DNA of 64,000 bases, from positions 1 to 64,000 of the IMG/VR virus record IMGVR_UViG_3300003653_000052; one strand, given 5' to 3'. Shown here in pieces: positions 3,460 through 61,200 of this stretch. Source of the DNA: a virus. The notes below the pieces were generated by a model. It made no database searches, was not told the origin of the DNA, and worked only from the letters and a program-made list of their open reading frames with translations. The translations under genes and the position numbers were made by a program. Every line of letters starts with the position of its first letter. The first letter of the stretch is position 1.

Positions 3460-4380
3460 ATGAAAAATTCACTATCAAACACAGGTCTAAGCTTATCACA
3501 AGCACAGTCAATCTCTAATTTATGTTACCAAAGAGGTACTGAAATCAATAACAATTTATCTGGTATTAACAATGCTACCAGAACTGTAAGGATTGGTACA
3601 GAGACCTTTGAGGAAACTGTTGGTAAACCAATGCCAACCAATGTAATAGTATTGTTATTAGAGAAATCTCAATTACATGCTACTCAAGCATTCTTAATGA
3701 CTAACATCAAAGCAAAGGATGAGATGATTAAGAGTATTCAACAGAGGGAATTCTCTTCTGATATTCAGGCTCCTGTTAGAGAACTTTTTGTTCATGCTAA
3801 TTTAAAGTCTAAAGTAGATGAAACTTGGGGTTGGTCACAACTTTCAGTTGCAGAAACTTGTGAGTTTTTAGAACAAGAAGCATTTTCTGCTCACGTGGGT
3901 CAGTTTATCCATAAAGATTCAATTCTTGATAAATTAAGAAGGCAACTTCCTAACATCAAGTCTTTGGAATGGATAACTATTAAAGATGGAGAGAAGACTC
4001 CGTTGATAATAAAGACTCATCATACCTCCGATCAACTTCTTGATTTGCATGAAGAGTTAGCTACATTACATAGAGGATATGAAATGCGGGTTAACTACTT
4101 CAAAGCCAAGGTTAAGAATTTGGTGACTGATCAAAATGCTAAAATTGCAAAAGAAAATGCAATAGAGCAGGATGAAGTCAATGGTAAAAACCTTCTTATC
4201 AATGTAGCTTACGAGAAAGCTATGAAAGAAGTTGATGGCATTGTCAGAAAACTTGTCCATGAGTTTGAAGTTATTAAAGAGCAGGATATTAGAGCTACAG
4301 CAGCTTTAAGAATATCTGTTGACCCACGGTTTCAGGAAACCGTTAATAGGTATTTAGCTAACCTAGACAAAGATGCTTAA
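3460..4380 (+). CDS. hypothetical protein (306 aa); apparently monocistronic early unit
   Basis: ORF track. The AACCTATCA motif lies 57 nt upstream and a strong intrinsic terminator follows immediately downstream. Confidence 0.75.
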   Translation: MKNSLSNTGLSLSQAQSISNLCYQRGTEINNNLSGINNATRTVRIGTETFEETVGKPMPTNVIVLLLEKSQLHATQAFLMTNIKAKDEMIKSIQQREFSSDIQAPVRELFVHANLKSKVDETWGWSQLSVAETCEFLEQEAFSAHVGQFIHKDSILDKLRRQLPNIKSLEWITIKDGEKTPLIIKTHHTSDQLLDLHEELATLHRGYEMRVNYFKAKVKNLVTDQNAKIAKENAIEQDEVNGKNLLINVAYEKAMKEVDGIVRKLVHEFEVIKEQDIRATAALRISVDPRFQETVNRYLANLDKDA

Positions 4381-5949: not shown

Positions 5950-6335
5950 GGGGCCAACGGGTAAGCACCTTAAGTCTAATTAATAATAAGCAAGTAGAGC
6001 ATTGTCTATTAATGTGAGCTCTTTAAAACTAGTAGATACAAGAATAATTGGCAACAATGATTCAAGCCTTGGACTCGTTCAAGATGTTAAATTTGCAATG
6101 TCTCACAATTTACTCTCTGGAGTATATGTAGGCAATCCAGTTGGAGAACTGGAGCTTGTATAACATAGCAAAACCTCAAAAAACTATCTCTGAGTTATCT
6201 GAGTGCAAAGGTTTGTTAAAACCTTAAAAGATCAAAATAAATTAAATATTCTGTTTGTAGAAGATAATACATTCAAACTTGTAGAAATTTGTTAATTAAC
6301 TTAGGGCAACGAGGGTTCAACTCCCTCTGGCTCCA
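5950..6335 (+). ncRNA. ssrA: tmRNA-like gene (transfer-messenger RNA), about 386 nt
   Basis: The 5' end GGGGCCA (5950-5956) pairs with TGGCTCC (6328-6334) as a 7-bp acceptor stem with G3:U70. The T arm is GAGGG-TTCAACT-CCCTC (6311-6327) and the discriminator is A6335. A long bulged P2 helix forms between GCACCTTAAGTCTAATTAA (5965-5983) and TTAATTAACTTAGGGC (6292-6307). An H-type pseudoknot pairs 5996-6000 with 6018-6022 and 6002-6008 with 6033-6041. It ends 8 nt before an open 37-codon frame (6050-6160, stop 6161-6163). Length and topology match bacterial tmRNA. Confidence 0.78.
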
Positions 6336-6339
6336 CTAA

Positions 6340-6362
6340 ATAACTGATAATTAATCAGTTAT
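6340..6362 (+). terminator. 9-bp hairpin immediately 3' of the tmRNA-like gene
   Basis: ATAACTGAT-AATTA-ATCAGTTAT. There is no U-tract, so it may be a processing or termination signal. Confidence 0.4.
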
Positions 6363-6850
6363 AACAATATTAGTAGATATGGATGAGTGAAATACATACC
6401 GAAAGGATAGTATTCAAAATCCTAAGTTTACTAATCTTATTAACCAGCCAGTTAGGTTAAGATGTGTAATTCATCTCTACAAATATATCCCGTAAGATAT
6501 GTTAGTAGCTGTTATAGACAGCATCATTATAATATAATCCAACGGAGGAATATACACTAATAGGATTGACTCCTAAATAGAAGGACACTCAAAAGGGATA
6601 AAGATAGCCAAAGTCTTAGAAAGGTCTTTATATTATAATTCTTACTATTATTCCCTACAATACCGGTTCCAAGAGAGGAGGATACACATGACGTGTTCTT
6701 GGAAAGCTGATTCCTCATACCAAAATCCAGGACTTCTAAAGAGTTCTATCTTATATGATATCTATGAGTAAAGTTTTGATAGCACTCAGCACTTAAGGCT
6801 GGGTGGAAAAACCACGGATTATATTTTTAACATATAAAATAAATAAACAA
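6363..6850 (+). ncRNA. candidate structured RNA or long structured leader (island C2, downstream of the tmRNA)
   Basis: The region is ORF-free. An 8-bp stem pairs 6667-6674 with 6697-6704 and has an inner ACAC/GTGT hairpin. GAGGA (6675-6679) is complementary to TCCTC (6712-6716), giving pseudoknot potential. An 8-bp hairpin lies at 6783-6805, with further 5-bp hairpins elsewhere. Confidence 0.3.
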
Positions 6851-14478: not shown

Positions 14479-14569
14479 GACAAGGTAACTCAGTTGGTTA
14501 GAGTATCTGATATTTGATCTAAAAGGACACTTAATCTTAAAGTCAGTGGTTCGAGTCCACTCCTTGTCA
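14479..14569 (+). tRNA. tRNA gene with canonical acceptor, D and T arms but an aberrant 40-nt anticodon/variable region (identity undetermined)
   Basis: The acceptor GACAAGG/CCTTGTC is a perfect 7 bp, followed by TA. The D arm is ACTC-AGTTGGTTA-GAGT. The T arm is AGTGG-TTCGAGT-CCACT and the discriminator is A. The middle region is about 17 nt longer than in a type-I tRNA. The best candidate stem, TCTGA/TCTAA, has 2 mismatches around loop TATTTGA. Confidence 0.7.
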
Positions 14570-14592
14570 CAAACTAAAATTTAAATAAAAAT

Positions 14593-25354: not shown

Positions 25355-26245
25355 ATGAGAAAACAAACAGGAACCTATAAAACATACTTTGATATGTTAA
25401 AAGATTTACCTAAAATTGGTAGATTAAAAATATTAAAATTATCACATAAAAATAAATGGGGAGCTTATTACTTATTTTGTAAATGTGATTGTGGAAATAT
25501 AAAAAGTATTGATTTTACATCGTTAAATCAAAAGAAAACTAATTCTTGTGGTTGTTTACAAAAAGAAAAGGTAAAAAATACTGGTATAAATAATAAAAAA
25601 TATTTTATAAATCAAAATACATTAGTAGATAATAATAGTACAGCTTATATTTCTGGTATTCTTGCTGCTGATGGTTGTAATGAAGGAACTGGTATTTCTA
25701 TTTCTTTAGCTATAAAAGATAAAGAAATTGTAGAATTTATAAAATTTTATTTTGAATATTCTGGTTCATTATTTATACGTAAAAAAGGAATTAATGAATC
25801 TGATCAAATAAGATTATTTATTTCAGATAAAAAATTAATAGAATTTTTTAGAAGTAGGGGAATTGTAAAAAGAAAAAGTAATATTTACCGTGTTTCAAAA
25901 ATTTACAAATATAATAAGCATTTTTGGAGAGGAATAATAGATGGTGATGGTTGTATATTTAATTATAAATATAAATATAGTTTTTATGGATTTACATTGT
26001 GTGGTACAAAAAATACTATAGAAAATTTTAAAAAATATTGTGAATCTATTATAAAAACATCTATAAAAGTAAATATTTATACCATAAATAGTAAATCTAA
26101 TAGTTATTCAATACATCTTATAGGAGCTAGATATTTAAAAATATTAGATGAATTATATTCAGATTTATCTACTAATTTATATTTAAAAAGAAAATATGAA
26201 AAATATTTAGAAATAAAAGAAACATATAAACAAAATATTAAATAA
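25355..26245 (+). CDS. LAGLIDADG homing endonuclease with N-terminal Zn ribbon
   Basis: Two LAGLIDADG-type motifs are present (YISGILAADGC and FWRGIIDGDGC). The N-terminal CKCDCG..(x19)..SCGCLQKE parallels the ORF at 10312. It has its own TATATTTG box ending 4 nt before the ATG. Confidence 0.75.
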   Translation: MRKQTGTYKTYFDMLKDLPKIGRLKILKLSHKNKWGAYYLFCKCDCGNIKSIDFTSLNQKKTNSCGCLQKEKVKNTGINNKKYFINQNTLVDNNSTAYISGILAADGCNEGTGISISLAIKDKEIVEFIKFYFEYSGSLFIRKKGINESDQIRLFISDKKLIEFFRSRGIVKRKSNIYRVSKIYKYNKHFWRGIIDGDGCIFNYKYKYSFYGFTLCGTKNTIENFKKYCESIIKTSIKVNIYTINSKSNSYSIHLIGARYLKILDELYSDLSTNLYLKRKYEKYLEIKETYKQNIK

Positions 26246-40874: not shown

Positions 40875-43800
40875 TTAATGTCTATTACTAAATATTTGAT
40901 CCATTGTATTTAATGTAGACTGGTAACTACTTAATCCAGGCACCATTTTATAAAATGATTGTGCTGTTTTAGAGCCTCCTTCATGTCTTCCTCTTTTATA
41001 AATATCTGATTGAGGATCATCCAAATAATTCCACATATTACCAACTAGTTTATGACCATCTCTAATTGTTTTGTACAAAGGAATAGGGTCTTTAGTAATT
41101 GCCGTAATAGAATTAAAACTATAAAAGAAAGTCATATCTTGATATAACCTAGTTAATGTATTTATTGTCATATTCATTTCTTTATCTGGAGGTTCTTTAC
41201 CTGCTAATGCAGCTAATGTCATTAATATTAAGGACATATATATAATATACTGTAACTCTCTTATATTAACTCTCATATTTTGAATATCTAAATCTGTTAA
41301 TCCTAGTTTTTTAAGATCTTTTTCATATTTTTCTTCACATAATTCAGATAATGACTTCATTCCTAATTGACTAAATCCGGGAATATTTGCTATTTTAGTA
41401 AGTAATGTAAGCATTGTTCCTCCTGCTAATGAACCCATACCTTTCCAAAATCCATTTTCTTCAGTATATGCTTGTCCAACATCTCTCCATGTGGTATATC
41501 TACCTTTAAATTGACCTTCAATTTCAGCACCAAATCTTTGATGAATTGCCCTAGGCAACCAAGTTCTAAACATCATAAGAACTCTTCCCGACACTGTAGA
41601 TTTTATACCCATAGTGCTTTGATAATCTCCTTGTGTTTGTTTTCTAATTTCTCTAACTCTATCTTTTATTTTTTTAATGTATAGAGGATCTAATTCACCA
41701 TACTTTTCTGTATTAAAGTTAAAATCATCATCAAATGCGTCCCATAAATTATCACCATTTAAAAATGCAGGTCTTTCATATTTCATTTTAGCAATTAATA
41801 ATTGACTTGCAAGAATATATTCTCCAGAGGTTTGCCAAGTTAACCCAAACTTTGCAATTTTACTAGTATACGTTTGACTATCTTCTATAAAACTCTCTTC
41901 AGAGATTCCCATAACTTCATTGGCTTTTTTAATCTTTTTAGCTACACTGGTTGGAATTTTACCTAAAGTAGTATAATTAAGAGCTGAATTACCAAGAATT
42001 CTTAAAGCTTGATATAATTCTTTATCTGTAAAATCAATTTTTCTAGCAGCATGTAAAAAATTATTTTCTAAACCAATTGTTAAATTGACAATAGCTGATA
42101 ATGGTTTTAAAAACATTAAATTAATTCTAGTATAATCTATTATTGCATCAATTACTTTTACTCCTGATAATTTATATAATATAGGTTCTTCTGGAATAGG
42201 TAATCCTTTTTGAATAGCCTCTGCTCTTAATATTTCCCATTTTCTATACTGTATTTTAAGTTGAGTGGCTTCTTTTTCAGTAGGAGGATTGCTTTCTGCA
42301 TCTAATCTTCTTTTACCATATAATTCAGATAAAATATTATATAACGCTAAATCTTTAGCGTTAGTTAATCCACCTTCAATTACAGATGGATCTCCCATAT
42401 TATGTATAGTTATACCTTTATTAACTCTAATAGCCTTTTGTTTATCTAATAGTCCTTTTAACAACCAAATATCAGGTTCTATTTCACTTTTATGTTCATA
42501 TGCTGTAGCTAATTGATAAAAATCTTTAATTAAATCTAATGGATTAGTATATCGTCTTTCTTTTTGTAATTCACCTATTTCTTTAGGATATACTTTTTCT
42601 TTAGGATTACCTTTTTCATCTGTTGCTTTTCCAGAATATCCACTTATATCTTGTTGTGTAATAGCTTTTCTAAATGTACTATTCATCCAATTCCCCATAC
42701 CTTCCCATGTTCTCTTTAATATAGTTGTATCTTCTTTATTAAAGTCAAATAATATACTATTTAGTACTTTATCAAATGAATTTAAATCCACTAACATTCT
42801 ATGAGGAATTTTTTTCATACCGTTTGTAATTGTATTAACTACAAATTTATATAAATCATCATCTTTAATTTTATTAAATTCAGGATTTATAAATTCTGCT
42901 TTTGGTGATTGATTAAGATATCTATACCAAAAGTTATTACCTTGAGTTTGAACTCCTGTATTTGCATAAGCTAATCCCAAATAAGGTGAATTTGAGTTTT
43001 CCCAATGTCTAATATAAGCTTCATCATCAGGACTTAAAAGTTCATCTTCATTTACCATAGCAAGACGTTCTTTTAATGAATCTAATCTTGCATTATATAT
43101 AGCTTCTCCTTCAGCAGTTAATGTATAGTTGTTTCTATCCATATACCATCTATCTCTATGATTGTACATCATTCTTCTATTATAAGCACTCTTAGTAGTA
43201 TTTGGCTTAAAGGTAGATTCAAGATATGTGCTTACTTTTGTTAACATAAGTTTTTCTTCGTCAAAATAAGAACCTTTGGTTTCAGTTATTAATCTTCCTG
43301 AAGCATCTAAAAACTTTTTAATAGCATCTTTATCTTTATATTTTGCACTAATTGCATCAAATTCTTTATTAAAAATAAACATTGCATCATTTGTCTTTCT
43401 TCTAGTTGTTTCAAATCTACTATCCATTAATCTTAATATAGGAATGATTGTAGTATCCATACCTAAAAATAGAAGTGTAGTTTTACTAATGTCTTTTACA
43501 GCAGCATTCATTCTTTCAAAGGTCATAGGTATTCCTTCTTCTACTGATTGATTTTCAATATTAGTACTTTGTCCTATCTTCCATTTTTCTAATAATATTA
43601 AACTTTCCGTTCTAGTATGTTGTAACTTTTTTCTATATTCAGCATCAAGCATATTTTTATCTATTGCTTCATCTAAAATTACAATTCTGTTTAATGTAGC
43701 TTCAATAAAAATTAATTCTCTACCTGAAAATTTAGATTTATTTAATATGCTATTTACTTCTTTTAGATCTCTTAAAGCAACATTAATAATATTATTATAT

Positions 43801-44102
43801 GACACTTCTTTTTGAAGTGCTTCTATAGATCTTTTAATTGTTTCTATATTGGCCCAGATAACATCTTTTTTAATAGTATCTTTTTCACCTATTAATTCTA
43901 GTTTTCTATTTTTTAATGATAAAATTTGTTTTTGATGAAGTGCTATTAACTTCTCATCTATTTTTTCTTCCTCCTCATAAAGATTAAGAGGATTTTCTTC
44001 AGTTATACCTTCATTAATTACATAAGAAGCTCTCTCTTCAGATACTTTTTCTGAATATTCTTCAAGTTCTTCATGACTTATTGGACAATTAATATCGCTC
44101 AT
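40875..44102 (-). CDS. large virion-associated (cargo-type) protein, 1075 aa, function unknown
   Basis: It is an uninterrupted 3.2-kb ORF and the last gene of the leftward giant-gene block. It has hydrophobic segments near the C-terminus (..YIIYMSLILMTLAALAG..). Confidence 0.8.
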   Translation of the reverse strand: MSDINCPISHEELEEYSEKVSEERASYVINEGITEENPLNLYEEEEKIDEKLIALHQKQILSLKNRKLELIGEKDTIKKDVIWANIETIKRSIEALQKEVSYNNIINVALRDLKEVNSILNKSKFSGRELIFIEATLNRIVILDEAIDKNMLDAEYRKKLQHTRTESLILLEKWKIGQSTNIENQSVEEGIPMTFERMNAAVKDISKTTLLFLGMDTTIIPILRLMDSRFETTRRKTNDAMFIFNKEFDAISAKYKDKDAIKKFLDASGRLITETKGSYFDEEKLMLTKVSTYLESTFKPNTTKSAYNRRMMYNHRDRWYMDRNNYTLTAEGEAIYNARLDSLKERLAMVNEDELLSPDDEAYIRHWENSNSPYLGLAYANTGVQTQGNNFWYRYLNQSPKAEFINPEFNKIKDDDLYKFVVNTITNGMKKIPHRMLVDLNSFDKVLNSILFDFNKEDTTILKRTWEGMGNWMNSTFRKAITQQDISGYSGKATDEKGNPKEKVYPKEIGELQKERRYTNPLDLIKDFYQLATAYEHKSEIEPDIWLLKGLLDKQKAIRVNKGITIHNMGDPSVIEGGLTNAKDLALYNILSELYGKRRLDAESNPPTEKEATQLKIQYRKWEILRAEAIQKGLPIPEEPILYKLSGVKVIDAIIDYTRINLMFLKPLSAIVNLTIGLENNFLHAARKIDFTDKELYQALRILGNSALNYTTLGKIPTSVAKKIKKANEVMGISEESFIEDSQTYTSKIAKFGLTWQTSGEYILASQLLIAKMKYERPAFLNGDNLWDAFDDDFNFNTEKYGELDPLYIKKIKDRVREIRKQTQGDYQSTMGIKSTVSGRVLMMFRTWLPRAIHQRFGAEIEGQFKGRYTTWRDVGQAYTEENGFWKGMGSLAGGTMLTLLTKIANIPGFSQLGMKSLSELCEEKYEKDLKKLGLTDLDIQNMRVNIRELQYIIYMSLILMTLAALAGKEPPDKEMNMTINTLTRLYQDMTFFYSFNSITAITKDPIPLYKTIRDGHKLVGNMWNYLDDPQSDIYKRGRHEGGSKTAQSFYKMVPGLSSYQSTLNTMDQIFSNRH

Positions 44103-44604: not shown

Positions 44605-47600
44605 TTAACATTTAAAAGGGTCATTACTATTTTCTAAAGTAGCTAGAGTTTTCTTATATACATCTCTAATTGCTTGTTTACCTATTTCAGTGGTATTACT
44701 ACTAGTACCTATACCAGCAAAGTTTTTAGTAAGAATAGGTGTATCTATTTTAATAAAATCATTTTCTTTCCATGTATACCAGCCTATATCATATTTATTT
44801 TTTATTTGATTAAATACATAAACAGGTTTATTTTCATTTATAGCCATTTGAACAGCACCACTAGTACCTCCATTAACTTGAGGTATTAATGCTATTTTAG
44901 TTACAGAACCTCCACTTAATGTTATGTTATCTCCTTTTGCAACTAAACTACCTATTGCAAATATAGCATCTGCATTTTTAACTTGAGCCCAATTTCTTAT
45001 TTTTTTACTATTTCTTGTTGTATGAGTAGGTTCTATTCGTCCCATTTGTCTTTCAGCAAGTGTTATTTTAAGTTGACCTTCTCCTACTTTGTTAGTAGAA
45101 GGTTTACCATTTCTATCTACACTACCTTCAGCAGCAGTTGCTACAGGTCCAACATCTTTTGTAGCATCTATGGGAGTTACTCCTTTATTTTGTAATCTTT
45201 TATCTGATACTGCTCCATCAGAAGGTAATAAATAATGTTTATGATTTATAAACTCAAAATCATTACCTATTAAATCCCATTCTGCATCATATCCTTGTGC
45301 TCCTCCTGAATGATTTATATAATCTTTTATATTATTAATTGTTGCGGTAGATACAGATTGTTCATCTATTTTTAAAAAAGCATCATTAAGAGCTTTGATA
45401 AACCAATTTTTACCTCCTGTTTCCCAAACAGTATTTTGTTTAGTTGGTTGATGAGTAGATGATAATATCCAAGCAGATCCTCCTACTTTATTTATTTCTT
45501 CAACAAGTCTAGGATGTTGTTTTAATTTTTCTTTAATAATTTGAACCATTAAATTATAAGTATTATTAGGCCCATCATCTTTAGTAGCTGTATTTTTAAG
45601 AGCTTGATAAGCAGCTTCAGCATCTTTATAAAATTTACTTTTAAAATCAACAGGATATGAATTTGATATATTACCTTTTGATTTAGCTAATTCAGTTGGA
45701 TTAGTAAGTGCTGCTCCTAATCCTTTAGCATTACTTGATATTTCAATACCATTAATTACTGTTGTTAGAACTGATGTGGTTTTACTTCTATTATTAATCA
45801 TTTCAAGTAATACATCAGCATGAGAAAAATAAGGATATGGTTTATAATAAAGTAATGTTTTACCATCTAAATTTCCAGAATTAATCTCTTTTAATATCCA
45901 ATTTCTTCTTTCTTGTTGAATATCTTGATGAGCAGTACCATTTAACCAATTTCTATAAGCTTCTGTAGCTTCTTTTACAGTAGGTACAATAATTAATCCG
46001 TCAACTAATCTACTAATAACTTTCCCATCTACTACTTTATCTTTTGGTGTACTCCATTGATTACCAAAATAATGAAACTCAGTTGCTTTAGTTAATTTCA
46101 TAATTCCTGCAGGTCTCATTGTCCAAATACCCTTAGCTGCAAAATAAGCTTCTTTAGCTGCTGCATAAGTTGAATAATTAATGACTTTAGCTGCAGGTGT
46201 AGGTACGATAGTAAGTTGAGGTTGTACTTCAAATACTGTATTTCCTTTTACTTTTTTAATTTCAGCATACATTTTATCACCAAATACAACATTTATTGGA
46301 ATTAATCTTCCTCCAAATGCATTGGCTAATTCATTTAAGCTATTTTTGTTTAAATTAGTATCTGAGTTATAGGGTATTATAAATCTTTTGTTTGGGTTAG
46401 CTCTAGCAACGGTATAAAGTTCTTGTATATTAGTTCCAAGTTCTACATAATTTAAAGGTTGTCCTGGTTTTTCAACAGTAATTAGTCCATATCCAGTACC
46501 TTTAGTTCCAACCATTAACCCAGTCTTTCCAGCTATTGCAAAATCACCTACTTTATTGTCAACTACATCTTTACTTAAATTTAGATTCCAGTTTCTATAA
46601 TTATCAGTAGTATTAGCATAAGCTAATGCTGCCATTCCTTGACCATGAAAACCTGCTCTATTTGCACCAAATACCATGACATCATTTTTACCAAACATAT
46701 CTTGAGATAAGTTTCCTGTAAAAGCAACTTTATTGTTAACAGTAGAAACAGGTTCAACATTCTTTTTAGTTAATTTAATATTATCTAATGTTTCAGTTCC
46801 CATAACTTTTCTTAATGTTAATACTGTTCTATAATTATCAGTTTTAACCATTTTATCAGCATGGCCTAATCCTGTAAATGCTTTATTAACAGTTAGTGTT
46901 GGAAATCCTTGAGGCATTGGTAAATCATTAGTTTCTTTATCAAAAACTATTTCATGCATTACATTTCTATTGTTTCCTGAAAATATAAGTATAGCTCCAT
47001 TATTTAAAATATATTCTGATTTAACAGTTCCTTTAAATGATTTAGGTAAAACATCTTTTACATAATCTATAATTTTTGTATCTCCTGTTTTTTCAGCATA
47101 TTTTAAAATATTAGAAGGTGTTATTTGTCCATAAGTAATTTTCTCTTTTAGGTTTTTAGTAACTAAATTTAAAGCAATTCTATATGGAGTTACATTACTA
47201 TCTGTTAAATTAAATTCATTACTGTCTTGTAATTCATAAGTAATAAATTTCATAGGTCTTCCTAATGAAATAGTAATAATTGGAGATTTATTAGTTTCTG
47301 TATTATCTTGATGTATTATTAAACTTCCATTATCTTCTTTATCATATACAGAGTTATAACTTGCTTCATATTCTGAAGCATCAATACCTTTAGTTGCTAA
47401 TAATTGAATGATATTTGAAGGTATATTTGGTAGTATTTTTCCATTTCTATCAATATTAGTATAGCCATATAAAGGAAATCCTCCAATTTGATTCATAGAT
47501 TCTCCTTTAACCCATCTATCTTTCATAGCTTGAGTAATAGATTTACCATTTAATTGTTTACCTACTACAAATCCTTTTTTAGTTTCAATAGACATTGTAT

Positions 47601-50600
47601 CATTTAATCTTACCCATCTGTGCCCAAAATCCCAAGATATTGAACCTTTAGTTTGTTTGTAAGAAGTTTCAGCAATTAAACCTTTAAAGCTATTTACTAA
47701 ATCAATACTTGTTTTTAAATCTATAGCATTTTCAATTATAATTAATCCATCTTCATTTTTAATAATCTTTTCATTAAGCATAGGTTGAGATGTAACAAGT
47801 GTAGTAACTTGTTTAATCATTTGTAAACCTGTTTTAAGATCTACATTAGAAATATATACTTCTCCTGATTCTAAATCTATTAAATCATATGTATCAGTAA
47901 GATTTAATATCCATTTAGCTGATTGAGGAGCTTTCTCACGTTTACTTGTTTGAGGATTATAGAATTCTTTAAATGTTGTTTTAGAAGTGAAAAACTCTTT
48001 AGGTAATTTACCTTCAGATTTAGTTAAATAACTTTTAAAAGCAGCAAGATCTTCAGAATTAATTATTTTTATTGTAATAATAGATTCTGGTAATATATAA
48101 TCAGGGTTTACAAATCCAAATTCTTTAAGTAATCTTTTATTTAAATGTTCTAAAACAAGTTTATCAGTAATATTATGACCATATCCTTTTTCATCAAATA
48201 TTAATGCAATACCTGATATTAAATCAAACACCATATTTTTAACACTTTCATCAATATCATTAATAGAATCTACTTTTATTTTAAAACCAGTATCTAAAAA
48301 ATCATCACCACTAGTAATGAAACGTGCTTTACCTAAATATATATCTGATATTATTTGTTTTTCATTTTCTGCAATATTTACTGTATTGAGAGTATAAATT
48401 CCTTCAATTGCAGTAGGGGTTATTCTATCAAATTCTTTATCACTAGTTATTATGTTTTCTCTAATAATCTCTTCTCCAGCCTTTTTAAGCTCTAAAACAT
48501 CTGTAGTAGAAAGATAGTTAATACCATTAATTCTTTGATTTAATTTTTTATTAGCTACAAGATTGTTTCTTAAAAATAAATTAAAAACAACCTCTAATAT
48601 ATCTTTATTCAAATTATGAGTTATTTTTTCAATAGCATCATTCATTATTAATGATTGAGCAGAACCTACAGGAAATATACTTGGATATGCAAATTGATGT
48701 TTATTCATACCACCTTGTAGAAAAGCATAAATAGAAAACTTTCTAAATAATTCAGATAATCTTTCATTATCTTCTCTGGCTTCTAAAGTATCTCCCATTA
48801 TTTTTTTAACAGAAGAATCAGATAATTTAGCAAGATCATCTGCATATTGTTCAGTGCTCTCTGGAGTTAAATCTCCTGAATCTTTTAAAGTAATATTTAC
48901 AAGACCTGATGCAAACTTATTTTTATTATTTGTATCATTTAAAGTATCTGAATAATAACTTGGTTGTAATTGTTGTATTATACCATATTTTGCTGAAAGA
49001 TTGTGTTTTTCTGAAAGATTATATTTATTAATAAGTGACATTAAAGTAGTAGCATAAGATGCAATACCAGACTGTTGATTATTAAAAAACATTGTTTTAA
49101 TATTATAAGAATTTTCTAAAGCTCTAGTTTTTAGATAATCTTCATAAATTAGTTCAGGAGTTCTTCCATCTTTTTTTTCTAATTTACTTGTAAAATAATA
49201 TGTTTTAGTAAACTCCTCCATAGGAGTAAGTGATCTTAATAATTCACGTTCTATAACAAAATCATAATAAGCTTTAGCACCTGCTAATTTACTTGTATAA
49301 TTATTAGGTAAATAAAATACATCTGAGGTAAGTGTTGATAATCCTTTTTTACGGTAAGATGTATCTCCAATAGCACTTAAAGTATAATCATTGTTTTTAA
49401 ATTCTTTTCTTAATATATTTTCATTAATATAAATAGCATCTGATTTAACTTCAACAGCATTTTTTCCCGTAGTAATATAAATTACAGGAGTACCCTTATA
49501 CATTTTGGATTTTCCTATTGAAAATGATTTAAGATTATTTACAAATAAATAATTCATTAAAGCATTTTTAAATCTTTTTGGAAAAGAATCTTTATCAAAT
49601 CCTGTTCTATCTCTAATAGTATTAATTTTTTTATAATCATTTAGAGTATCATAAATAAATTCATTTAAAAGATTATTATTTCTTAATGTAAACAATCTAC
49701 TGAATAAATCTTGTGCAAGTTCTGTTACTTTAAAAGCACGTATAGCACTTTCGTCAGTGATATACTTTATAATCTTAACCGGCATTTTAGTACTTGCAGT
49801 TACTTCATCAAGTCTTAATTGTCTAGAAAATACATCAAATAAATCCCCAGATTTAGTAGTATCAAAACTTGTTACTTTTCTTGGTTCATCAAAATTTGTA
49901 GCTAATTCTTCAATATATAAATAATGTAAAAAACCATTAATAGCATCTTTATCTTTAATACTATCTGAAAGTTTAGATTTAGCTATCTTTTCTAATTCTT
50001 TTGTAGTAAATATTCTATCTCCATGTTCTTTATTTAAATTTTCAGCAATAGCCACAGTGTCTCTCATATCCATAATGGTACCTGCTTTTTTAACCATTTC
50101 ATATATAGAGGTTCTTGCATTGGCTTTGGCAAATTCAGGACTACTATCTTGTTTCTTTAATCTATTTAACAATCCTTTATTAATCTTCATATTTTTAATA
50201 TATGCTCTTATTATAGGATTATTTACATAATAAATGACATCTTTTATAGGTACTCCTGATTCTAATAAAAATAAGATAATAGGAGTTACCTCTTTATTAC
50301 CTTGTATAAAAGCAATCCAAGCATCTTTTTCAGAATCTACATAACCATTCATTAATTGAGAAATGATTTCTGAAATTTCATGTTCATTATTTGAGTCATA
50401 TAAATTTGATAGAGATATTACTTTACGTTCTATACCATTTTCATCTAATATGATTATTCTATTGTGTTTTAATAATAATTTTGTAGGAACATTAATTATA
50501 ACATCTGTTTTCTTTTGAACACCTTCTTCATCTGGTACCATTCTTTTACTTATAAAAGGTACTTCAAAAGGTATATAAGCTCCAGCACTATTATAAACAA

Positions 50601-53600
50601 TATTACCTTTATTACCCAAAGCCGCAATACCTAATGCTTCTTTACTAACAAAGTTATCTGTGTGTTTCTTAAGATTAAACCCATATTCAAGATTACGTGT
50701 AGGACTTACTCCTTTTAAAGTAGGAGTTCCGTTTTTTCTTTTTGAAGACTTATAATCATAATCCTGAACATGTTTTTCCATATCATATGCTATGGGCTTA
50801 GTTTTATGAGTATCATTAGGAGTTAATAATCTTATGGCATTTTCAGGTAATTCAAGAATACTGATTATATCATTAATCAATGAGTTTTCTATAGCTTTGA
50901 TGAAGTTTCTTCTATGATCTTTTAATGCTGCATATTCTTTATTTAATTTTTTAAGTTCAGGATAATCTTTTAAATAATCTTTTTTTTCATCGTGTTTTTC
51001 ATTTAATGCTGTCTCAATTTCACTAAGTATTTTTGAATTTTCTTTAATATTATTAAATGCTGTAAGCATATCTCCTTTAGATAACATAGTAGGAACAGTT
51101 TTAAAATCATTAATGATTTTTACTATTTCTTTATTATCCCTAGAAGTCATAATTACATTTAACCCAGCATAAACTTTACTTACAGCGTTTTTATTTACAA
51201 TAAATGATTGTATATCACTTATATCTTGAGATAATACATCTTTTATATTAGTTTTTTGTATACCTAATGCTACAATTATCTTTCCCTTATCTGCTTTTTC
51301 TGAATAAAAACTATTTATTAAATCTTTAACTTTATCTCCTACAATACCTTCTTTAGTTAGTATTTTAGTTATTTTACTTTCTATTAGTTTTATTTCATTA
51401 TTTAATTCTTCTCTTGTTGCATATTTATCTGAAAACCATTCTCCTGTTTTACTAATTGTAGGCATATAAGTAGTTAACTTATCTACGTCAAAGTCAGTAC
51501 CAGATTTGGCTACAATTTCAGCAGGTAAGATTATAATATTACCTGCAATTGTGGGTAGAAATTCAGCTATTATAGCAAATTCCATAGAATTATGACCTTG
51601 AACAGGAATACGTACACCAGTTAATCTTAATTTTTTTCTATTATCTCCAATATTTAACCATTCTTCATCTCTAATTAATTGATTGAGTCTAGCTAAACTT
51701 CTATCAGTATTAAGAACATCTATAGTTTTTTTAGGATCTTTAGGATCTATAATTGTATCATATTGAGCAATTTCAATACCTTTAGTATCAAGAAGATTAT
51801 AAAGATTTAAAAAACTTCCTTGCATTGCAATTTTTACTTGACATCCAATTGTGACCTTAATACCATCAATGTCAGCAGTATAAAAATCTAAATCTCCATC
51901 ACCATATTTTTCTAATTCAGCATCAATGTTCTTAAACTTTAATGTACTGGATACAGAAACTTCAACTAAAGGTTCACCATTAACTAGTTGTTTAAGAATT
52001 TTGTTATTAAGAACAGCCATTAATTTCTGTTCAAATTTATCAGCAATAGGAGAACCACTAAGATCTCTCATTAATCCCCCTTGTCCATTATTCTCAATAT
52101 ATTCTAATTCATGTTTTGTTAACCCTTGTTTTTCTAATTCGTCATGTACAAACTGAATTAAACTACTTAAATTATCTTCAGGACCTTCATAATGTCCTGT
52201 TTTAGCATTCCAACTCCATCCAGTAATACTTGTTATTAAATCATGTTTTTTTATCTGAATTAATTTAGAAACTCTATCTTCATATGTTCTTACTAATTTA
52301 AAGAAAGGAGAGATGGCCATTTGTTCAGCTTCTGTTAATGCTTCCCAAGCAAGTGTTCTTTTTACACCAGATATATCTTTTGTTATAAAATCAATTGGAA
52401 TACCATTTTCAATTAATCCAGCAGATAATAAAGTACGTAATTGAGTAGACATAGCGGCATGTCCTTTAAACTCACTATTAATTTCTGTTTGATTTTTTAA
52501 ATAATCAACATAAATTGTATTTTTTGTTAATTGAACATTTGGTTTCATTTTACCAGTTTGTTCATCAAATACATCATCTGCTATTTGTTTATTATTATTT
52601 GTTATAGAAGATAATTTAGAACCAGATGAGTATGTAGCATATTGTACACTCTGTTTCATCATAGTTTCATGTAATTCTTCTAAAGGAGTTCCTTCTATTA
52701 CAGAAGGAATTAATGGAAATAATGCAAATTTATGACCAGATGTTATTGGTAATAACCCGAGTGCTGTTTTAAGATTACCTGCATATTGTAATTTATAAAC
52801 CGGAAAGAATTCAACTATATCTTCTGTTAAGATGGGTTCTTTTCTTACAATTTTTTGATAAATTCTTTCTTGATGATCACTCCAAGATCCTTCTAAGTCT
52901 TTTAATCTTCTATAAGCATCTAATGAAATATAACCTTGACCATCTGTTACAGTAGGATTTTCATAAGGATCCATCATTAAGTCTAATTCTGTAGATAACT
53001 CATTATCTTTTTTACCCTTTTTTATAAGATGTTTTTTAAAAAGTTCTCTTAACTTTTTATTTACATGAGCTCTTGGTGTTTTATAATCTTTAATAATAGC
53101 TGTATTAAAAGTGCCATTAAACAAATCATCAATACCTGTAAGTTGTTTTGTAAGTGCTGTTCCTAATATATTAGCATTATCTCTAGCTGCCCGATCTGTT
53201 GGAAACATAATACCACTTGATTGAAATAAAGAATATCTTTTAGTAGCTTCATCTTTAAAATGGTCATAAGTATGTAATTCACCATTATGTAATAAAGTGA
53301 TTTCATAATTATTTATCCAACTATTATAAGTAAAGGAAGCTAATGCAGCATTATTTAATCTTTCTACATATGCTGGTTCTTTCAATAATGATATATCTCC
53401 TTTTATTGATTTTACAATATTTTCACGTATTCCTGGAGCTGTATAACCATATTGAGATATTAAAACTTCTTTATATTCATTATTTAAAGTAGTAAAATAA
53501 TGTTTTAGTTCTGTTTTAATTTTTCCTAATAATACTTCACCTTTTGTAGTACTATTAAGTAAATCTAATAAAGTTTTATTTTTATTAGCATTATATTTGT

Positions 53601-56600
53601 TTAGTTGTTCTGTAGTTATTCCATTTGGTGCATAAGGATATATTCCATTTTCTAATTCTTTAGCAATATGTAATAGTTCCTTTTTAGTTGTTTCTTCAAG
53701 AACATCATCAAATACTACAAATTTTCCTACAATATCACCTATAAAGTTACCTTTCTTATCTAATTGACTAAATCCTTTATAGTTATCATATACGTCTTTG
53801 TTTTGATTATACTTATAAATTCTTTCTACTTCTGATTGAATATAAGGTAATAATATAGTAAATGCTTTTTCAAATCCTCTATGATTTCCTTCTTCGTCAG
53901 CTATAAATTCATCAGTTCCTACATATAAATGATTAAAACTTTTATTTTTTCCATCATAAGTTTTTATATTACTTAATTTGGTAGCATAATGTGTACTTTT
54001 TCCACCAGTTACAGGATGAATGACTACACCATCTAATAATAACATGTTATAATCACTAATAAATTTATCCATAGTATCCATAGCTGCTTGAGATGACCCT
54101 TCATCTTTGGAGTCATTTCCATTACGAACAATATAAGAGGTACCCGGAACATTTATTATATTTATACTAGTTTTTGTATGTTTACCATCTACTTTTGAAA
54201 ATAATGTATTTAATAATACAGAAGACTTAGCTGATGGATTATTAAAATGACTTAAATATGACATATAAGACCATTGACTATCTTCATTTGAGAAATCTTC
54301 AATATTAGTTGCTTCTTGTAGTGCATATGCATGTTTAGAGACTGTGGATTGTAATGCCATTTCATCTCTCTTTTCTCCATCTGGAGTAATTCTACTTGTA
54401 CTTGAATATTTATCAGAATGATCAGATTCAAGTCTGGCTAATTTATTTATAAAAGCACCGTGTTCTTCAATTTTAGTATTTAAGTAAGTTGTATTATTAT
54501 TACTGTCAATTACTTCTTCTAAACCATGATTTATTTTTGAAAAAAACTCAATAGGATCTATTATTTTAATAATAATTGGTGTTTTATCATCACTTTCTAT
54601 TAAATTTTTATTATTTAATAATCCTATAGCATTTGCTAATACGTTTATACTATTGATAATACTATCATCAATATTTATACTAGATACCGTTTCGGTATTT
54701 AATGTAAGATTAAGACCTATAGCATTTAAAAATTGTATATGATCATCAGTAGTATTTTTAACTGTATATGATATATGTGTTTTCTTATTTTTAATAGTTT
54801 CTTGTCTAATTAAAAACTTTTGTCTAATAGCATCAAGATGTAAATAATTTTCATTTTCAGATGTCTGTAATATATAAGGGCTTTCTTTAGTTTCAGCCAT
54901 CTTAAATTCTGATTGCCAATTAGATTTAACTTTATGAAAATCACCACCAGCTCTACCTGTTGTGGTAGTAACAATTGATGATATTACTTTACCATATTCA
55001 TTAGTTTCAACCTTATTTGTTATAGTATGGGAAATTAATTCTTGTTTTGTTTTACTAAATACTTTTACCATTTTAGACCATAAACGTCTTTGTTCAACAT
55101 TTCCTGAAGTAGGATGACCTAATCTAGCTAGTAATTGTTTAAATAAAATATTATGATTAACAACAGCTTCTTTTTCTATTTTATTATATAAAGTACTCAT
55201 ATAAGGAGTACTATTTAATCTTCTTATTAAAGCATTCTTAGTCATTGTATAATTTACTAGCATTGGAAAACCTAATGAATTTAATTCGTAAATTCCATCA
55301 CTAGTTTGTTGCAATAAGCTTTTGATTACATAAACCACTTGGTTATCAGCATCTTCATATGGATCTTTTGCATTAGGTCCTTTATCACCATAACCTGCTG
55401 AACTATTTTTAAATATATCTGCTGGATTACCATCAATATCTAATTCATCTTCTTTATTTGAAATTCTTAATAAATCATTAAAATCACTATTGATAAGATG
55501 ATATCCTACAACACCACTGTTATTTTCTTTTTGAGAAAAATTATCAACTGAATTTTGTATATTTCCAAAATTAGCTATAGTCCAGGCTAATATTTCAACA
55601 TTATGATCAAGAGTAGCTTTATCATCTGCTGATAATTTTGTGTTTTTTTGCTCCTCTATTAATTCAAGATGTCTTTTTTTTATTCTTCTTTCTACTTCTT
55701 CATAGATCTTTATTTTATTGGCATTAATAGTAAGTCCTCTTATTGTAAATAAAGCTCCATTTTCAGTTATTATTTTAGACATTAAAGCATCAATACTTTC
55801 TTTTACAAGTTTAGTATCAGTATGATTTAATCCATCATTTACATCAGCAATAGTTAACATACCAGCGTTTGCTATAGAGAATGATACATTTTCTACAGAA
55901 GGGGCATAATTATTTATATCTCCTACATAAAGAGCTTTGTACATCTCCTGTACGGATTTTATTGATTGTAAACCACTAACAGCATCTTGAATAGTAACTC
56001 CTTTGAAAATACTATTAATAAATTCCCATATTCTTTTAAATATAGATTTAGTAACTCCTTTTAAATTTTTAGCATCTCCTTTATTTATAGCAAAATCTCT
56101 AAATCCTTCAGCCAAATACTCTTCTAATTCTCTTTTAGTAGCTTTAGAAAATTCTCTATCTACTAATAAGGGTACTACATTTCCATTCTCATCTAATCCT
56201 CTACTGATAACTTTAAAGGTTCCTTTTAATTTAGAAGTTTCTTCATATAATTTATTTTTTTCTTCTTTAGTTAAGAATAGTTGACTAAATCCATGCCATG
56301 CTTCGTGATATATATGAGTGTCATCTGAACCATTAAATAATTTAATACCAGCCACTGACCAAGTAGCAAATGCTGTTGAATTAACTATATTTCTTAGTCT
56401 TTCTAATGAAATTGCCAATTCACCATTAATCTTAATTGTTGATAATGGACTATTAATCCACCATTTATCAGCAATTTTTTGTTGTTCTGGTGTTGTTTTT
56501 CTATCAATTAGTTTATTTAATTCAAGATTTAAAAAATTATTAGGTTCATCTATTATTGTATTTAATTTTGCAGCATTTTCTATTATTTTATCTTCTTCAA

Positions 56601-58273: not shown

Positions 58274-61200
58274 TTATTTACATCCTAAATTGTTAAAAAA
58301 ATCTTTATTTATGTCATTATTAGATTGGTTCTTAGCTTCATCATTGGCTTTTTGTAAATCTTCTTTAGAAACTACTTCTAAAGCAGTATTAACAATATCT
58401 TTAACTTGCTCTTTAATTTCTTCAGAAATTTCAATTGGTTTTGGCATTGCTTCTCTAGTTATTTTCTCAATTTCTGAAATATTTATATTAGTTTTTTTAG
58501 TCTTTAAAGGACTAAGAATACCTACTGTAGTTATTGATTTATCATCTACAATTTTTGTTTTATTGATTGTAAATGTAGGATAAAAAACCCCATCTATTAC
58601 AATTTTATAACCTTTTGTTTTTGCAGATTTTAGATTTTCTGGAGTTATTACAGTCCATAATTCTGATTGTCTGTTACTAATGGCAGTATTAATTAAAGTA
58701 TCTATTTCAATAGACTCTCCCGTTGTATTCTTCAGTGCCTCATCCCCTGATTTATCAAGTTCATCAAAGGTTTTTGATTCTTTTATATTATTTAATTCTT
58801 TATTGATATCAACCTCAGATAACATTTTTTCTAATCCTTTTTCTATTGCTTCTTTTTCAGTATCTCCTTTTGCTATTGGAATTCCTGGGTTAGTAGTTGT
58901 AAGAAGAACAAAAAAGTATTCTTTTCCTTTTTTATATACAAAAAACTGATTTCCTTCAGCTTCAATAAGATTTCCTTTTAAAGGACCTTGTGGAAAATCA
59001 AATTCAAGATCTCTTAATATAGTATATGGGGGAACTTTAAAAACAATTTCTTTTTCACTTGTTTTTTCACTTATTTTTTCTAAAGCATCTAATTCTTTTA
59101 ATTCTAATTCATATATAGCATTAATTTCTGAAACGGGTCTTTTATAATAATAAAAACTACTCCTATCTAATTTTGGATTAAAACTTAATATTGGTCCATT
59201 ATTAATAGTATATTCAAGACTTCTACCATATTTATCTTTTCTTGATATTATTTTGTATTTATTTCCATCTTTATCTAATAGAGTATCACCAATGTTACCA
59301 GAAGCTAATCTTACTTCATTTGTTTTTAATGCCCATTTCCATCTATCAAATATATCAGCTCTTTTGGCGGCATTAGACATAGCAGCTTTTTGTATTGGGG
59401 GTTTACCTATAGCATCTAATTCAGCATCATATTTATTATTAATAGTTTCTCTTAATCTCCAATCACTTGGGTACTTTGAAGGATCTGCTTGATCTCCTAT
59501 GTGTTCAATAGTACCATCACTATTATATATAATAGCCTCTTTTATTTCTATATCAGTACCTTTAATGCCTTCTCCCCATGTTATAGAAGCTAATGATTTA
59601 TCTCTTCTTTTTTCTATATCGGCTTTTTGAGCATTTATATCATCTTCATTAGTTGATTTATTTAATAATTTTGTTAATTCTTCATCATATTTAGCATTAA
59701 TAGCATCATATTTATCAATAAATGCTACAGCTCGTTTATCACTTCTTTCGGCTATAGCATCAACACTTTTTTTATTTAAAGCAATTTCTCCAAGTTCTTT
59801 TACTAATTCTTCATCTCTTCTTCTCTGAAGATTATCTATTTGAATATTTATATCATCTTTATCACCTGGTACAGAAGTAATGATCGGTATAGATTTAGCA
59901 ATTATATTATTTATATCAGATGTTTTATTAACAAATATATTATTTTCTCTATCAGAAAGTTTTTTCTTATTTTTAACTTTATCAGCAATATTATTTAATC
60001 TTTCATCTGATACTATACCATTATCAAGAAAATCATTATATTCAGTATCACTTATACTATCTAATACAGTTTCAACTACTTTTTTTACTTTTTTAGCTCT
60101 TGGTTTTCTTGGTTTTACTACTTTAGTAACAACTGTAGTTATAGTTTCTACGGGTACTTTTTCTTCTTCAATAGGCTCAATAGGTTCTACAACCTCATCT
60201 TCTTTAACAAACTCAATCATACCTGTTAAATATCTAATTTGTCTTTGATATTTAATTAAACTATCTTTTAATTCACTAAGTTTTTTATTCTCTTTATTAA
60301 CTGCTTTTTCAACTATATCTCCATGTTCAAAAGCTTCTGATACCATATCTTCTAATGCTGTGTGTATTTTATTTAATTCAGCATAATCAAGTAACATTGC
60401 CTTACCTGGTTTATTAAGCACACCTTTTTTATCAAATTTTAATAACTGAGCTAATTTATCATTCTTTTTAATATTAGTAAAATAAGGATGTTCTGATTCA
60501 AACTTACTAAATAGTTTAAATCTATCAGAAATAATATTAGCCAAATCTCTTAGTATATCAAGAGAAGAATTAATTAATTCTTTTAATTTATTAATTAATG
60601 TTTGAATAGTAGATACTTTTTTCTCAAGTTTTGCCTTTTTATCTATAACTTCTTTTAATCTTAAATTAGGATTAGCTAAAATCATATCAGTATAATACTG
60701 AATAGCATTTAGTAAATCATCTCGTAATACCTCTAATTTATCAATATTATCTCTAATTTCTTTAATATTAGTTTTAATTGTATCAGAAACACTAAACAAA
60801 TTTGTATAATCTGATTGAACTTGTGTAAGTCTTTCTTTATTATGATTTAAATTACCTACTCCTGAATCAATGTCTTTTTGTATAGACGCAATATCTTCAC
60901 TAACAATACCTATTATTGATTGTAAATTATTTGTAGCTATTTGTAATTCTCTATTTAAACTATTTAAGGTTTTCTTATTATCTTTAATATTTTGATTAAT
61001 AGTTTCTAATTCATCTTCTTGTTTTAATACTAATCCTTCAGGTGTGGTTGGATATTTCTCAATTTCTTTTTCCTCTTCTTCTTCTATATTAATTACCGGA
61101 ATTATTCCTGGGATAATTATAGGAACAATTTTAGTTTTTTTAATAAGTTTAGTACTAATATAACCCGTTAATGGAGTACCTTTTTTATTAGCTTCTTTTA

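Follow-up and report, generated by a model that had tools for sequence, protein, structure and literature searches.

A stretch of viral DNA of 64,000 nucleotides (nt; IMG/VR record IMGVR_UViG_3300003653_000052, positions 1 to 64,000; hereafter the window) contains a putative gene for a transfer-messenger RNA (tmRNA) whose tag reading frame runs for 37 codons and ends in ..ELELV. A tmRNA tag is normally about 10 residues long, and which protease degrades the rescued protein depends on the final residues of the tag. The locus raises the questions of whether so long a frame is read as a tag at all, and what would become of the proteins that carry such an end. We give a probability of about 0.72 to the reading that positions 5950-6335 hold a one-piece tmRNA gene of a phage-borne family with very long, structured tag frames, which is functional by prediction.

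When the window was searched with Rfam, the tmRNA family RF00023 matched positions 5950-6338 (+) along the full model (positions 1-374) with 59.7 bits and an E value of 7e-21, above the gathering score of 47. The identification as a tmRNA, which an earlier note had made from the letters of the window, was thus borne out. The acceptor stem, the T arm and the pseudoknot PK1 of this copy were all free of defects, and the acceptor stem carries G3:U70, the alanine identity pair. The terminal CCA is not encoded in the gene, and the bases after the discriminator A6335 are CTA. ARAGORN run on the window made no call for the tmRNA at 5950-6335.

The relatives of this RNA were reached through a protein search with a 53-amino-acid (aa) open reading frame (ORF), which returned the protein P0002, 73% identical, on contigs L015 and L016. 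It could reach the family because the tag frame carried a protein annotation from public gene callers. Furthermore, degenerate probes made from the two peptides recovered 7 viral and 12 metagenome loci. After the removal of duplicates, the comparison set, drawn from viral and metagenome contigs, consisted of 14 distinct sequences of 374-395 nt (the window and 13 others), which are related to each other; all family counts below refer to this set. Locus L026 was syntenic with the window: its tmRNA, with a 37-codon tag ending in ..GELELV, lies at the same locus, and the proteins encoded around it are homologs of the window's 86-aa protein upstream and its 167- and 96-aa proteins downstream (31-68% identity). 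The flanks of the loci other than L026 were unrelated to those of the window.

The helices of the tRNA-like domain and of PK1 were kept in the family through changes on both strands. For the acceptor stem, 98% of the alignment cells were paired and five of the seven pairs had changed on both sides, and G3:U70 was kept in 13 of the 14 members. The T arm was 96% paired, with both-side changes in 4/5 pairs. In PK1, helix a was 100% paired (3/5 pairs changed on both sides) and helix b was 97% paired (1/7).

The start of the tag frame was then set by three kinds of evidence. The context GA.UA..U followed by GGN-AAC was found in all 14 sequences, and it includes the invariant U(-5)A(-4), whose E. 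coli equivalent is U85 A86; there, A86 sets the frame four nucleotides downstream (PMC2481249). Together with the Rfam alignment and with the start that ARAGORN placed at the homologous codon in six relatives, this supports GGC 6050 as the resume codon, as the earlier note had proposed. Its frame of 37 codons up to TAA 6161-6163 and its peptide GNNDSSLGLVQDVKFAMSHNLLSGVYVGNPVGELELV, ending in AGNNDSSLGLVQDVKFAMSHNLLSGVYVGNPVGELELV, were exact, and the window tag, about four times the usual length, indeed lacks the canonical ..ALAA end. The distance of 8 nt that the note gave between PK1 and the resume codon has to be corrected: the 3' strand of PK1 ends at 6036, and the spacer is 13 nt (6037-6049).

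The length of the open run is by itself a poor guide. The frame is indeed open for 57 codons in total, 20 of them upstream of GGC. With a composition-based stop probability of 0.076 per codon, the probability of 57 open codons in one preset frame is 0.011 (0.053 for 37 codons), which agrees with the chance of about 0.01 in the earlier note. However, that estimate did not hold overall, since, when the 386-nt RNA was shuffled by mononucleotides 5000 times, 962 of the shuffled sequences (19%) were open over 57 codons or more in one forward frame or another. Open-run length alone is therefore not significant, and the significance rests on the comparison with relatives. Ten of the 14 sequences have an in-frame stop at a distance of 3-26 codons upstream of GGC, and the remaining four are open in this frame up to the 5' end of the RNA. 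As for the 20 additional open codons of the window, they overlap with PK1 and are incidental, not coding.

Downstream of the resume codon, all 14 sequences were open from GGN up to the aligned stop, with no stop in the 483 codons of frame 0, compared with 42 of 469 in the +1 frame and 52 of 469 in the +2 frame, where the stops were at scattered positions. The ratio of nonsynonymous to synonymous differences (pN/pS), summed over the family, was 0.48 in frame 0, and 1.08 and 1.10 in the +1 and +2 frames, respectively. Since the shifted frames use the same nucleotides, they serve as a control for constraint at the RNA level. The minimum number of changes at codon positions 1, 2 and 3 was 26, 25 and 43, the third position changing most. 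The tags had 32, 33, 34, 37 or 38 codons, differed in length by whole codons only, and began with GN(N/T/S/R)(D/E)S.LG. Moreover, ARAGORN gave the same long tag in L019, L022, L028, L029, L031 and L033, for example GNNDSKLGTILDLKYALANNMLVKTEVEELLAA followed by the stop. The comparison of related tag frames for stops, indels and a synonymous pattern, which the earlier note had suggested, therefore came out in favor of the frame: it survived in all 14 sequences with the RNA structure kept, and it showed the lower pN/pS.

The same nucleotides also form a structured RNA. The first 18 nt past the resume codon were unpaired in every member. Hairpin A, which follows, was 98% paired, with 2/6 pairs changed on both sides; one compensatory switch from U-A to A-U forces Gln to Leu in the tag. 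The closing helix, which contains the stop codon, was paired in 88% of the cells, with both-side changes in 2/6 pairs (pair 3 occurs as G-C, C-G and A-U). Hairpin B is present in 11 sequences and was 100% paired in them, again with both-side changes in 2/6 pairs; its start invariably coincides with a codon boundary, and 8 nt separate its end from the stop. In L026, its CCAG/CUGG was changed to UUAG/CUAG, a compensatory change that forces Pro to Leu. Between hairpins A and B, the members with the -AA end have a shorter predicted hairpin at the place of the long hairpin C. The moderately low pN/pS is probably due to the superposition of peptide and RNA constraints.

The tag codons 12-14 of L022 read GAC UUA AGA, compared with GAU CUU AAG in relatives including L023 and L019. 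This is an apparent one-base deletion compensated three bases later, by which the frame and the stop-region pairing were kept and only Lys was changed to Arg.

The stop codon is followed by 169-185 nt in all members (172 in the window). In the post-stop domain, the posterior probability of the Rfam alignment was low, and the members, which contain indels there, could barely be aligned. According to a review (PMC8012679), RNase R recruitment requires the tag frame's 3' end, so that an RNA-level role of the conserved 3' end of these tag frames is plausible. The peptide was also modelled from its single sequence with AlphaFold, and the mean predicted local distance difference test score (pLDDT) was 71; residues 5-22 were predicted as a helix (pLDDT 76-84) and the last 15 residues as unstructured. 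A helix on the family-conserved residues 5-22 is only a hint from this model.

Membership in the RNA family, covariation of the structure, conservation of the frame and a coding signature were all observed at this locus. Several observations nevertheless weigh against a functional tmRNA family with translated long tags. Only 5 of the 14 members reached the Rfam gathering score, and L015, L025, L026 and L027 were below it. ARAGORN was blind to the window copy and to every other ..ELELV member, probably owing to the non-AA end in the case of the window copy; besides these five sequences, it missed L017 and L023. Three members have atypical tRNA-like domains: L017 (2920-3314) has U3:A70 in place of G3:U70, the T loop AUCGUAC and the discriminator G; L027 (201-588) has two acceptor mismatches and the discriminator U; and L025 (208-598) has the T loop GGCAGCU. 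These domains may belong to decaying copies, reflect a changed charging identity or result from assembly errors, and part of the family may accordingly be in decay. The coding signal of 0.48 is moderate and entangled with the constraint on RNA structure, and the two amino-acid changes Q/L and P/L are dictated by base compensation in the hairpins. The last 14 codons and about 13 nt past the stop were nucleotide-identical in the window, L015 and L025, with the next approximately 90 nt barely aligning; the -ELELV end thus provides no synonymous-site information. Two acidic residues lie near this end, which makes its strength as a degron uncertain. Finally, SmpB was not found by a scan of 30 window ORFs and by tblastn, the window being about half of a contig of approximately 126 kb.

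We then turned to the ends of the tags, which were hydrophobic in all 14 sequences. An -AA end was found in eight of them (..ELVAA, ..ELSAA, ..ELELQAA and ..EELLAA), L017 ends in ..ELVLA, and ..GELELV was found in five, namely the window, L015, L025, L026 and L027. The window tag thus lacks the usual Ala-Ala, but its ..ELELV is still hydrophobic. The length of the tag, which the earlier note had found unusual, turned out to be family-wide, at 32-38 codons, and most often combined with -AA. As judged from the aligned sequences, the long tag is a trait of the family and -LV is the derived end of one subclade, which was plausibly reached from -AA through -LA. In both groups, hairpin B lies 8 nt from the stop, so that plain substitutions explain the difference between -AA and -LV. 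For the same reason, an origin of ..ELELV from -AA by a frameshift, suggested by a shared AGCTT, was ruled out.

Since most of the relatives end in -AA, the family tag was most likely a proteolysis signal ancestrally. In E. coli, the last three residues of the ssrA tag set the strength of degradation, and tags ending in AAV or ASV are degraded more slowly than those ending in LAA or LVA, but they are still degraded (PMC9097571). By analogy, ..ELELV, whose end is still hydrophobic, would most likely act as a degron, which may be weaker or recognised by another protease or adaptor; stabilisation or marking by this end is possible but unsupported.

The earlier note had gone further and suggested a different fate for the products, be it stabilisation, another protease or marking. 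In this reading, the translated tag would take them out of ClpXP degradation through its ..ELELV end, alone or together with the long helical body, and the other protease or adaptor could be that of the host or of the phage. The change from -AA to -LV in one subclade, after which ..GELELV was kept in five distinct sequences, is consistent with this proposal, and so is a tag body (residues 5-22) that is conserved in the family, predicted to be helical, and more than a C-terminal degron needs. The long tags of Mesoplasma are recognised by the Lon of that organism and for the most part evade the E. coli proteases (PMC9097571), and the tag of mycobacteriophage Bxz1 likewise ends in -ALV. However, the relatives combine the same body with the canonical -AA, so that the body is compatible with a standard degron, and the Val-ended variants of E. 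coli, as mentioned, are still degraded. No protease or adaptor gene was seen among the 30 window ORFs scanned, and searches for Clp and Lon in the window were negative. Moreover, ..GELELV is conserved at the level of nucleotides, in a stretch shared with hairpin B and the closing helix, so that RNA constraints may be responsible. We therefore regard a non-ClpXP fate as doubtful.

A broader picture can be drawn, albeit a highly tentative one. These phages, of freshwater and groundwater, would form a lineage with a tag 'language' of its own, whose 33-39 residues comprise a helical body that is conserved and a C-terminus that can be exchanged. Within the subclade of the window, the change from -AA to -LV would remove the tagged proteins from the ClpXP route of the host, and they would either be spared or pass to another protease or adaptor. 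In this way, the fate of the many truncated proteins that are made during infection or during RNA cleavage by abortive defence of the host would be under phage control.

The domain may also be imagined to work as RNA only, in ribosome rescue or as a decoy of SmpB or of alanyl-tRNA synthetase (AlaRS) like the RNA of phage DS6A, which consists of the tRNA-like domain (TLD) only; the open frame would then be a by-product of the multi-hairpin domain. In its favor, structure is abundant in the tag region, where hairpins A and B and the closing helix covary, and base-pair compensation drives some of the amino-acid changes. In addition, the identity of the tag is dispensable in E. coli for ribosome release and for the support of phage growth (PMC2481249), and the TLD-only phage tmRNA is known to inhibit the host tmRNA (PMC4131195). 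This explanation is nevertheless unlikely: over the same nucleotides, stops are absent from frame 0 and frequent in the other frames; pN/pS is about 1.1 in the shifted frames that control for RNA constraint and less than half of that in frame 0; the indels are in phase; and the ends are uniformly hydrophobic, in most members with -AA. A decoy would need none of these features of the frame and its end, nor the invariant frame-setting U(-5)A(-4).

It is very unlikely that the ..ELELV members, the window copy among them, are tmRNA genes in decay that have lost the canonical tag end and no longer function. The failure of ARAGORN on all five, the Rfam scores of L015, L025, L026 and L027 and the aberrant tRNA-like domains of L025 and L027 would fit such decay. 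In the window, on the other hand, the acceptor stem, G3:U70, the discriminator A, the T loop, PK1 and the upstream UA are flawless, and in the subclade the frame of 37-38 codons is open, with pN lower than pS in every pair. Furthermore, hairpin B of L026 shows compensatory changes, and the gene was kept there at the same locus despite the divergence of the flanking proteins. An ordinary small protein gene of 53 aa starting at TTG 6002 (6002-6163), as called in L012 by JGI together with a 93-aa gene in L015 and L016 (P0002), is hardly credible, for what precedes GGC is the covarying PK1 RNA, in-frame stops lie 3-11 codons upstream of GGC in five relatives (L019, L023, L025, L026 and L027) and there is no common start codon, and the whole element is a full-length tmRNA match.

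If the gene is a functional tmRNA, as we prefer, its action would be as follows. The RNA would be cut from a longer transcript, receive CCA and be charged with alanine by the host AlaRS through G3:U70. It would be delivered to stalled ribosomes with SmpB, presumably that of the host since none was found in the window, and the invariant U(-5)A(-4) would put GGC 6050 into the A site. The ribosome would read the 37 codons, unwind the three hairpins and terminate at UAA 6161 in the helix-5-like closing helix, and the rescued nascent chain would end in a 38-residue extension, A-GNNDSSLGLVQDVKFAMSHNLLSGVYVGNPVGELELV. Charging, the use of SmpB, tagging and the fate of the tagged proteins are taken here by inference from the established mechanism of trans-translation (PMC8012679). 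The features concerned are listed in Table 1.

Table 1. Predicted features of the tmRNA gene, in window coordinates.
Feature	Position	Strand	Description
tmRNA gene	5950-6335	+	386 nt up to discriminator A6335; ends set by acceptor pairing
Acceptor stem, 5' strand GGGGCCA	5950-5956	+	Pairs with 6328-6334; G3:U70 present
Helix 2 (long connecting helix), 5' strand	5968-5995 (approximate)	+	Rfam alignment; minimum-free-energy fold pairs it with ~6276-6306
Pseudoknot PK1	5996-6036	+	Helix a AGAGC 5996-6000/GCTCT 6018-6022; helix b TCTATTA 6005-6011/TAGTAGA 6030-6036
U(-5)A(-4), frame-setting nucleotides	6045-6046	+	Invariant in 14/14; equivalent to E. coli U85 A86
Resume codon GGC (Gly)	6050-6052	+	Rfam alignment to consensus resume codon; GGN-AAC in 14/14
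Tag reading frame GNNDSSLGLVQDVKFAMSHNLLSGVYVGNPVGELELV	6050-6160	+	37 sense codons; 38 aa appended including the charged Ala
Hairpin A CTTGGA-CTCG-TTCAAG	6068-6083	+	Tag codons 7-12
Closing helix (helix-5-like), 5' strand ATGTTA	6084-6089	+	Codons 12-14; pairs with TAACAT 6161-6166
Hairpin C, long, internal	6100-6133	+	Codons 18-28; predicted in every ..ELELV member
Hairpin B CCAGTT-GGAG-AACTGG	6137-6152	+	Codons 30-35; family pattern ..AGUU-GRRG-AACU..
Tag stop codon TAA	6161-6163	+	Inside closing helix 3' strand (6161-6166)
Post-stop domain	6164-6275	+	Place of PK2-PK4 in standard tmRNAs; poorly conserved
Helix 2, 3' strand	6276-6306 (approximate)	+	Holds conserved CTTGTAGAAA motif (6278-6287)
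T arm GAGGG-TTCAACT-CCCTC	6311-6327	+	Loop is canonical UUCRANU
Acceptor stem, 3' strand TGGCTCC, and discriminator A6335	6328-6335	+	Acceptor pairing

The distribution of the family was also examined by nucleotide searches. The blastn search of the window tmRNA against 50,697 GenBank phage records gave no match, and the exact 24-mer of the T arm and acceptor gave 0 matches in IMG/VR. With a degenerate acceptor, the sole IMG/VR match was an unrelated tmRNA of a high-GC huge phage (L013/L014). The IMG/VR contig L014 of this phage, 317 kb in length and unrelated to the window, carries a bacterial-type RNase P RNA (191 bits) and a conventional tmRNA (124 bits), at 1231-1539 and 3697-4050, and a tRNA array. 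Contig L012 was set aside as a relative, since its identity of 99.96% makes it the same phage without comparative value. A scan of genome contigs for a bacterial source of the tag gave only a spurious match, in a Paenibacillus coding region (L036).

In the neighbourhood of the tmRNA, a 306-aa protein encoded 1.6 kb upstream led to 11 phage relatives, in which the tmRNA was absent by Rfam, ARAGORN, blastn and nhmmer. Roughly at the place of the window's tmRNA, these relatives have a GOLLD RNA (306 bits; L002 8528-8942). They also contain a group I intron (L002 7274-7461), Hatchet ribozymes (L004 712-848, L005 5493-5629 and L008 5561-5697), a 'permuted tmRNA' match in a 23-tRNA array (L009 2819-2970) and a suppressor-type tRNA with the anticodon tta (L002 5843-5920). 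The tmRNA neighbourhood looks like a swap-site for RNA genes.

Downstream of the tmRNA, the window has a gene-free gap of approximately 460 nt (6336-6802), for which an Rfam search gave no match at E<=1. A perfect 9-bp inverted repeat, ATAACTGAT/ATCAGTTAT, lies at 6340-6362, directly past the tmRNA's 3' end, and in L026 and L027 this position is taken by a hairpin that differs in sequence. Some stretches of the gap are conserved in the syntenic L026, at 73% over 6440-6534 and 77% over 6650-6810.

Over-long tRNA matches of 90-146 nt were seen in the window (14479-14570) and in L003 (3315-3442), L019 (1939-2084), L033 (806-950), L022 (4173-4262) and L028 (1319-1415), and the tRNA-Lys(ttt) of the window has a 30-nt insert past the anticodon stem. 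This suggests introns or inserts in the tRNA genes of these phages. ARAGORN also reported 'tRNA-???' with 2-nt anticodons in L015, L017 and L019.

As for the phage itself, the window has two giant ORFs of 4,555 aa (44605-58272, -) and 1,896 aa (58274-63964, -), from which a crAss-like phage was first guessed. This assignment was dropped, because the DNA polymerase matched scattered unrelated phages at no more than 34% identity. The 1,075-aa ORF adjoining the giant ORFs (40875-44102) had no PHROG match, and an ORF resembling a LAGLIDADG homing endonuclease lies in the replication module at 25355-26245 (+).

The locus also has a practical side in annotation. Public calls (JGI, ENA) label the tag frame together with PK1 as a hypothetical protein in L012 (1048-1209, 53 aa) and in L015 (1127-1408) and L016 (423-704; 93 aa), and these protein calls are mis-annotations. 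ARAGORN is the finder in common phage annotation pipelines. Since it misses the ..ELELV members and the callers annotate the tag frame as a protein, such elements are under-counted and mislabelled. The six members that ARAGORN detects may already be present in databases without having attracted notice.

For tmRNA and phage biology, the interest lies in a coherent family of phage tmRNAs with tags at or beyond the longest quoted lengths (8-35 aa; PMC8012679), in which the tag-coding stretch doubles as a conserved multi-hairpin RNA and -LV appears to have replaced -AA in one subclade. The commonest length of tmRNA tags is 10 (PMC11915505). Phage tmRNAs have been proposed to keep hijacked ribosomes running or to tag proteins for recycling. 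If the long body or the new end alters the fate of the tagged proteins, these phages would manipulate the protein quality control of the host, beyond a top-up of ribosome rescue.

Compared with the standard one-piece tmRNA (SsrA, RF00023, with E. coli as the model), the window RNA has the same acceptor stem with G3:U70, T arm, helix 2 and PK1, and likewise U(-5)A(-4) in a spacer of about 12 nt, a resume codon without a start codon, a stop in the closing helix and a similar overall length (386 nt). As in tmRNA, there is no anticodon arm but a long helix 2 instead. It differs from the standard by its 37-codon tag, the three extra hairpins in the tag frame, -LV instead of -AA, the shorter and poorly conserved post-stop domain (172 nt), the unencoded CCA and its carriage by a phage. 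The Mollicute tmRNAs (Mesoplasma florum, Mycoplasma) share the AT-rich genomes and the long tags; the likeness drawn here is one of description. In their tags, recognition is spread along the tag and specific to the cognate protease, and the tag of Mesoplasma florum, which largely escapes the E. coli proteases, needs Mf-Lon (PMC9097571). These RNAs are cellular, whereas that of the window is phage-borne.

Among phages, ssrA is found in about 2.3% of isolate genomes (PMC9004378); the carriers listed are the Bxz1 group, phage G and DS6A (PMC4131195), and huge phages carry tmRNAs as well (PMC7162821). In the literature, of which our coverage was incomplete, we found no description of this family or of phage tmRNAs with tags this long. 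Two-piece tmRNAs occur in the OM43 phage Melnitz and in pelagiphages, and other phage forms include the huge-phage tmRNAs and the TLD-only RNA of DS6A. Unlike permuted or tag-less forms, the RNA of the window is made in one piece and has its tag frame complete; no riboswitch was seen with it.

A close likeness is to the Bxz1 group, whose tmRNA is also phage-encoded and one-piece, with an unusually long tag and an -LV end. In Bxz1, the gene lies at L039 14060-14494 (AY129337 100059-100493), where the GenBank record lists no such feature. ARAGORN recognises it, unlike the window copy, and Rfam scores it with 73.9 bits; the tag is ATDTDATVTDAEIEAFFAEEAAALV followed by the stop, with 25 codons and the end -ALV. 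It is 12 codons shorter than the window's and of other composition. The two RNAs have no sequence relationship, one coming from a high-GC actinophage and the other from a 27%-GC phage, and the -LV ending is seen in them independently. Both the long phage tag and the -LV end of the window tmRNA therefore have a precedent in Bxz1.

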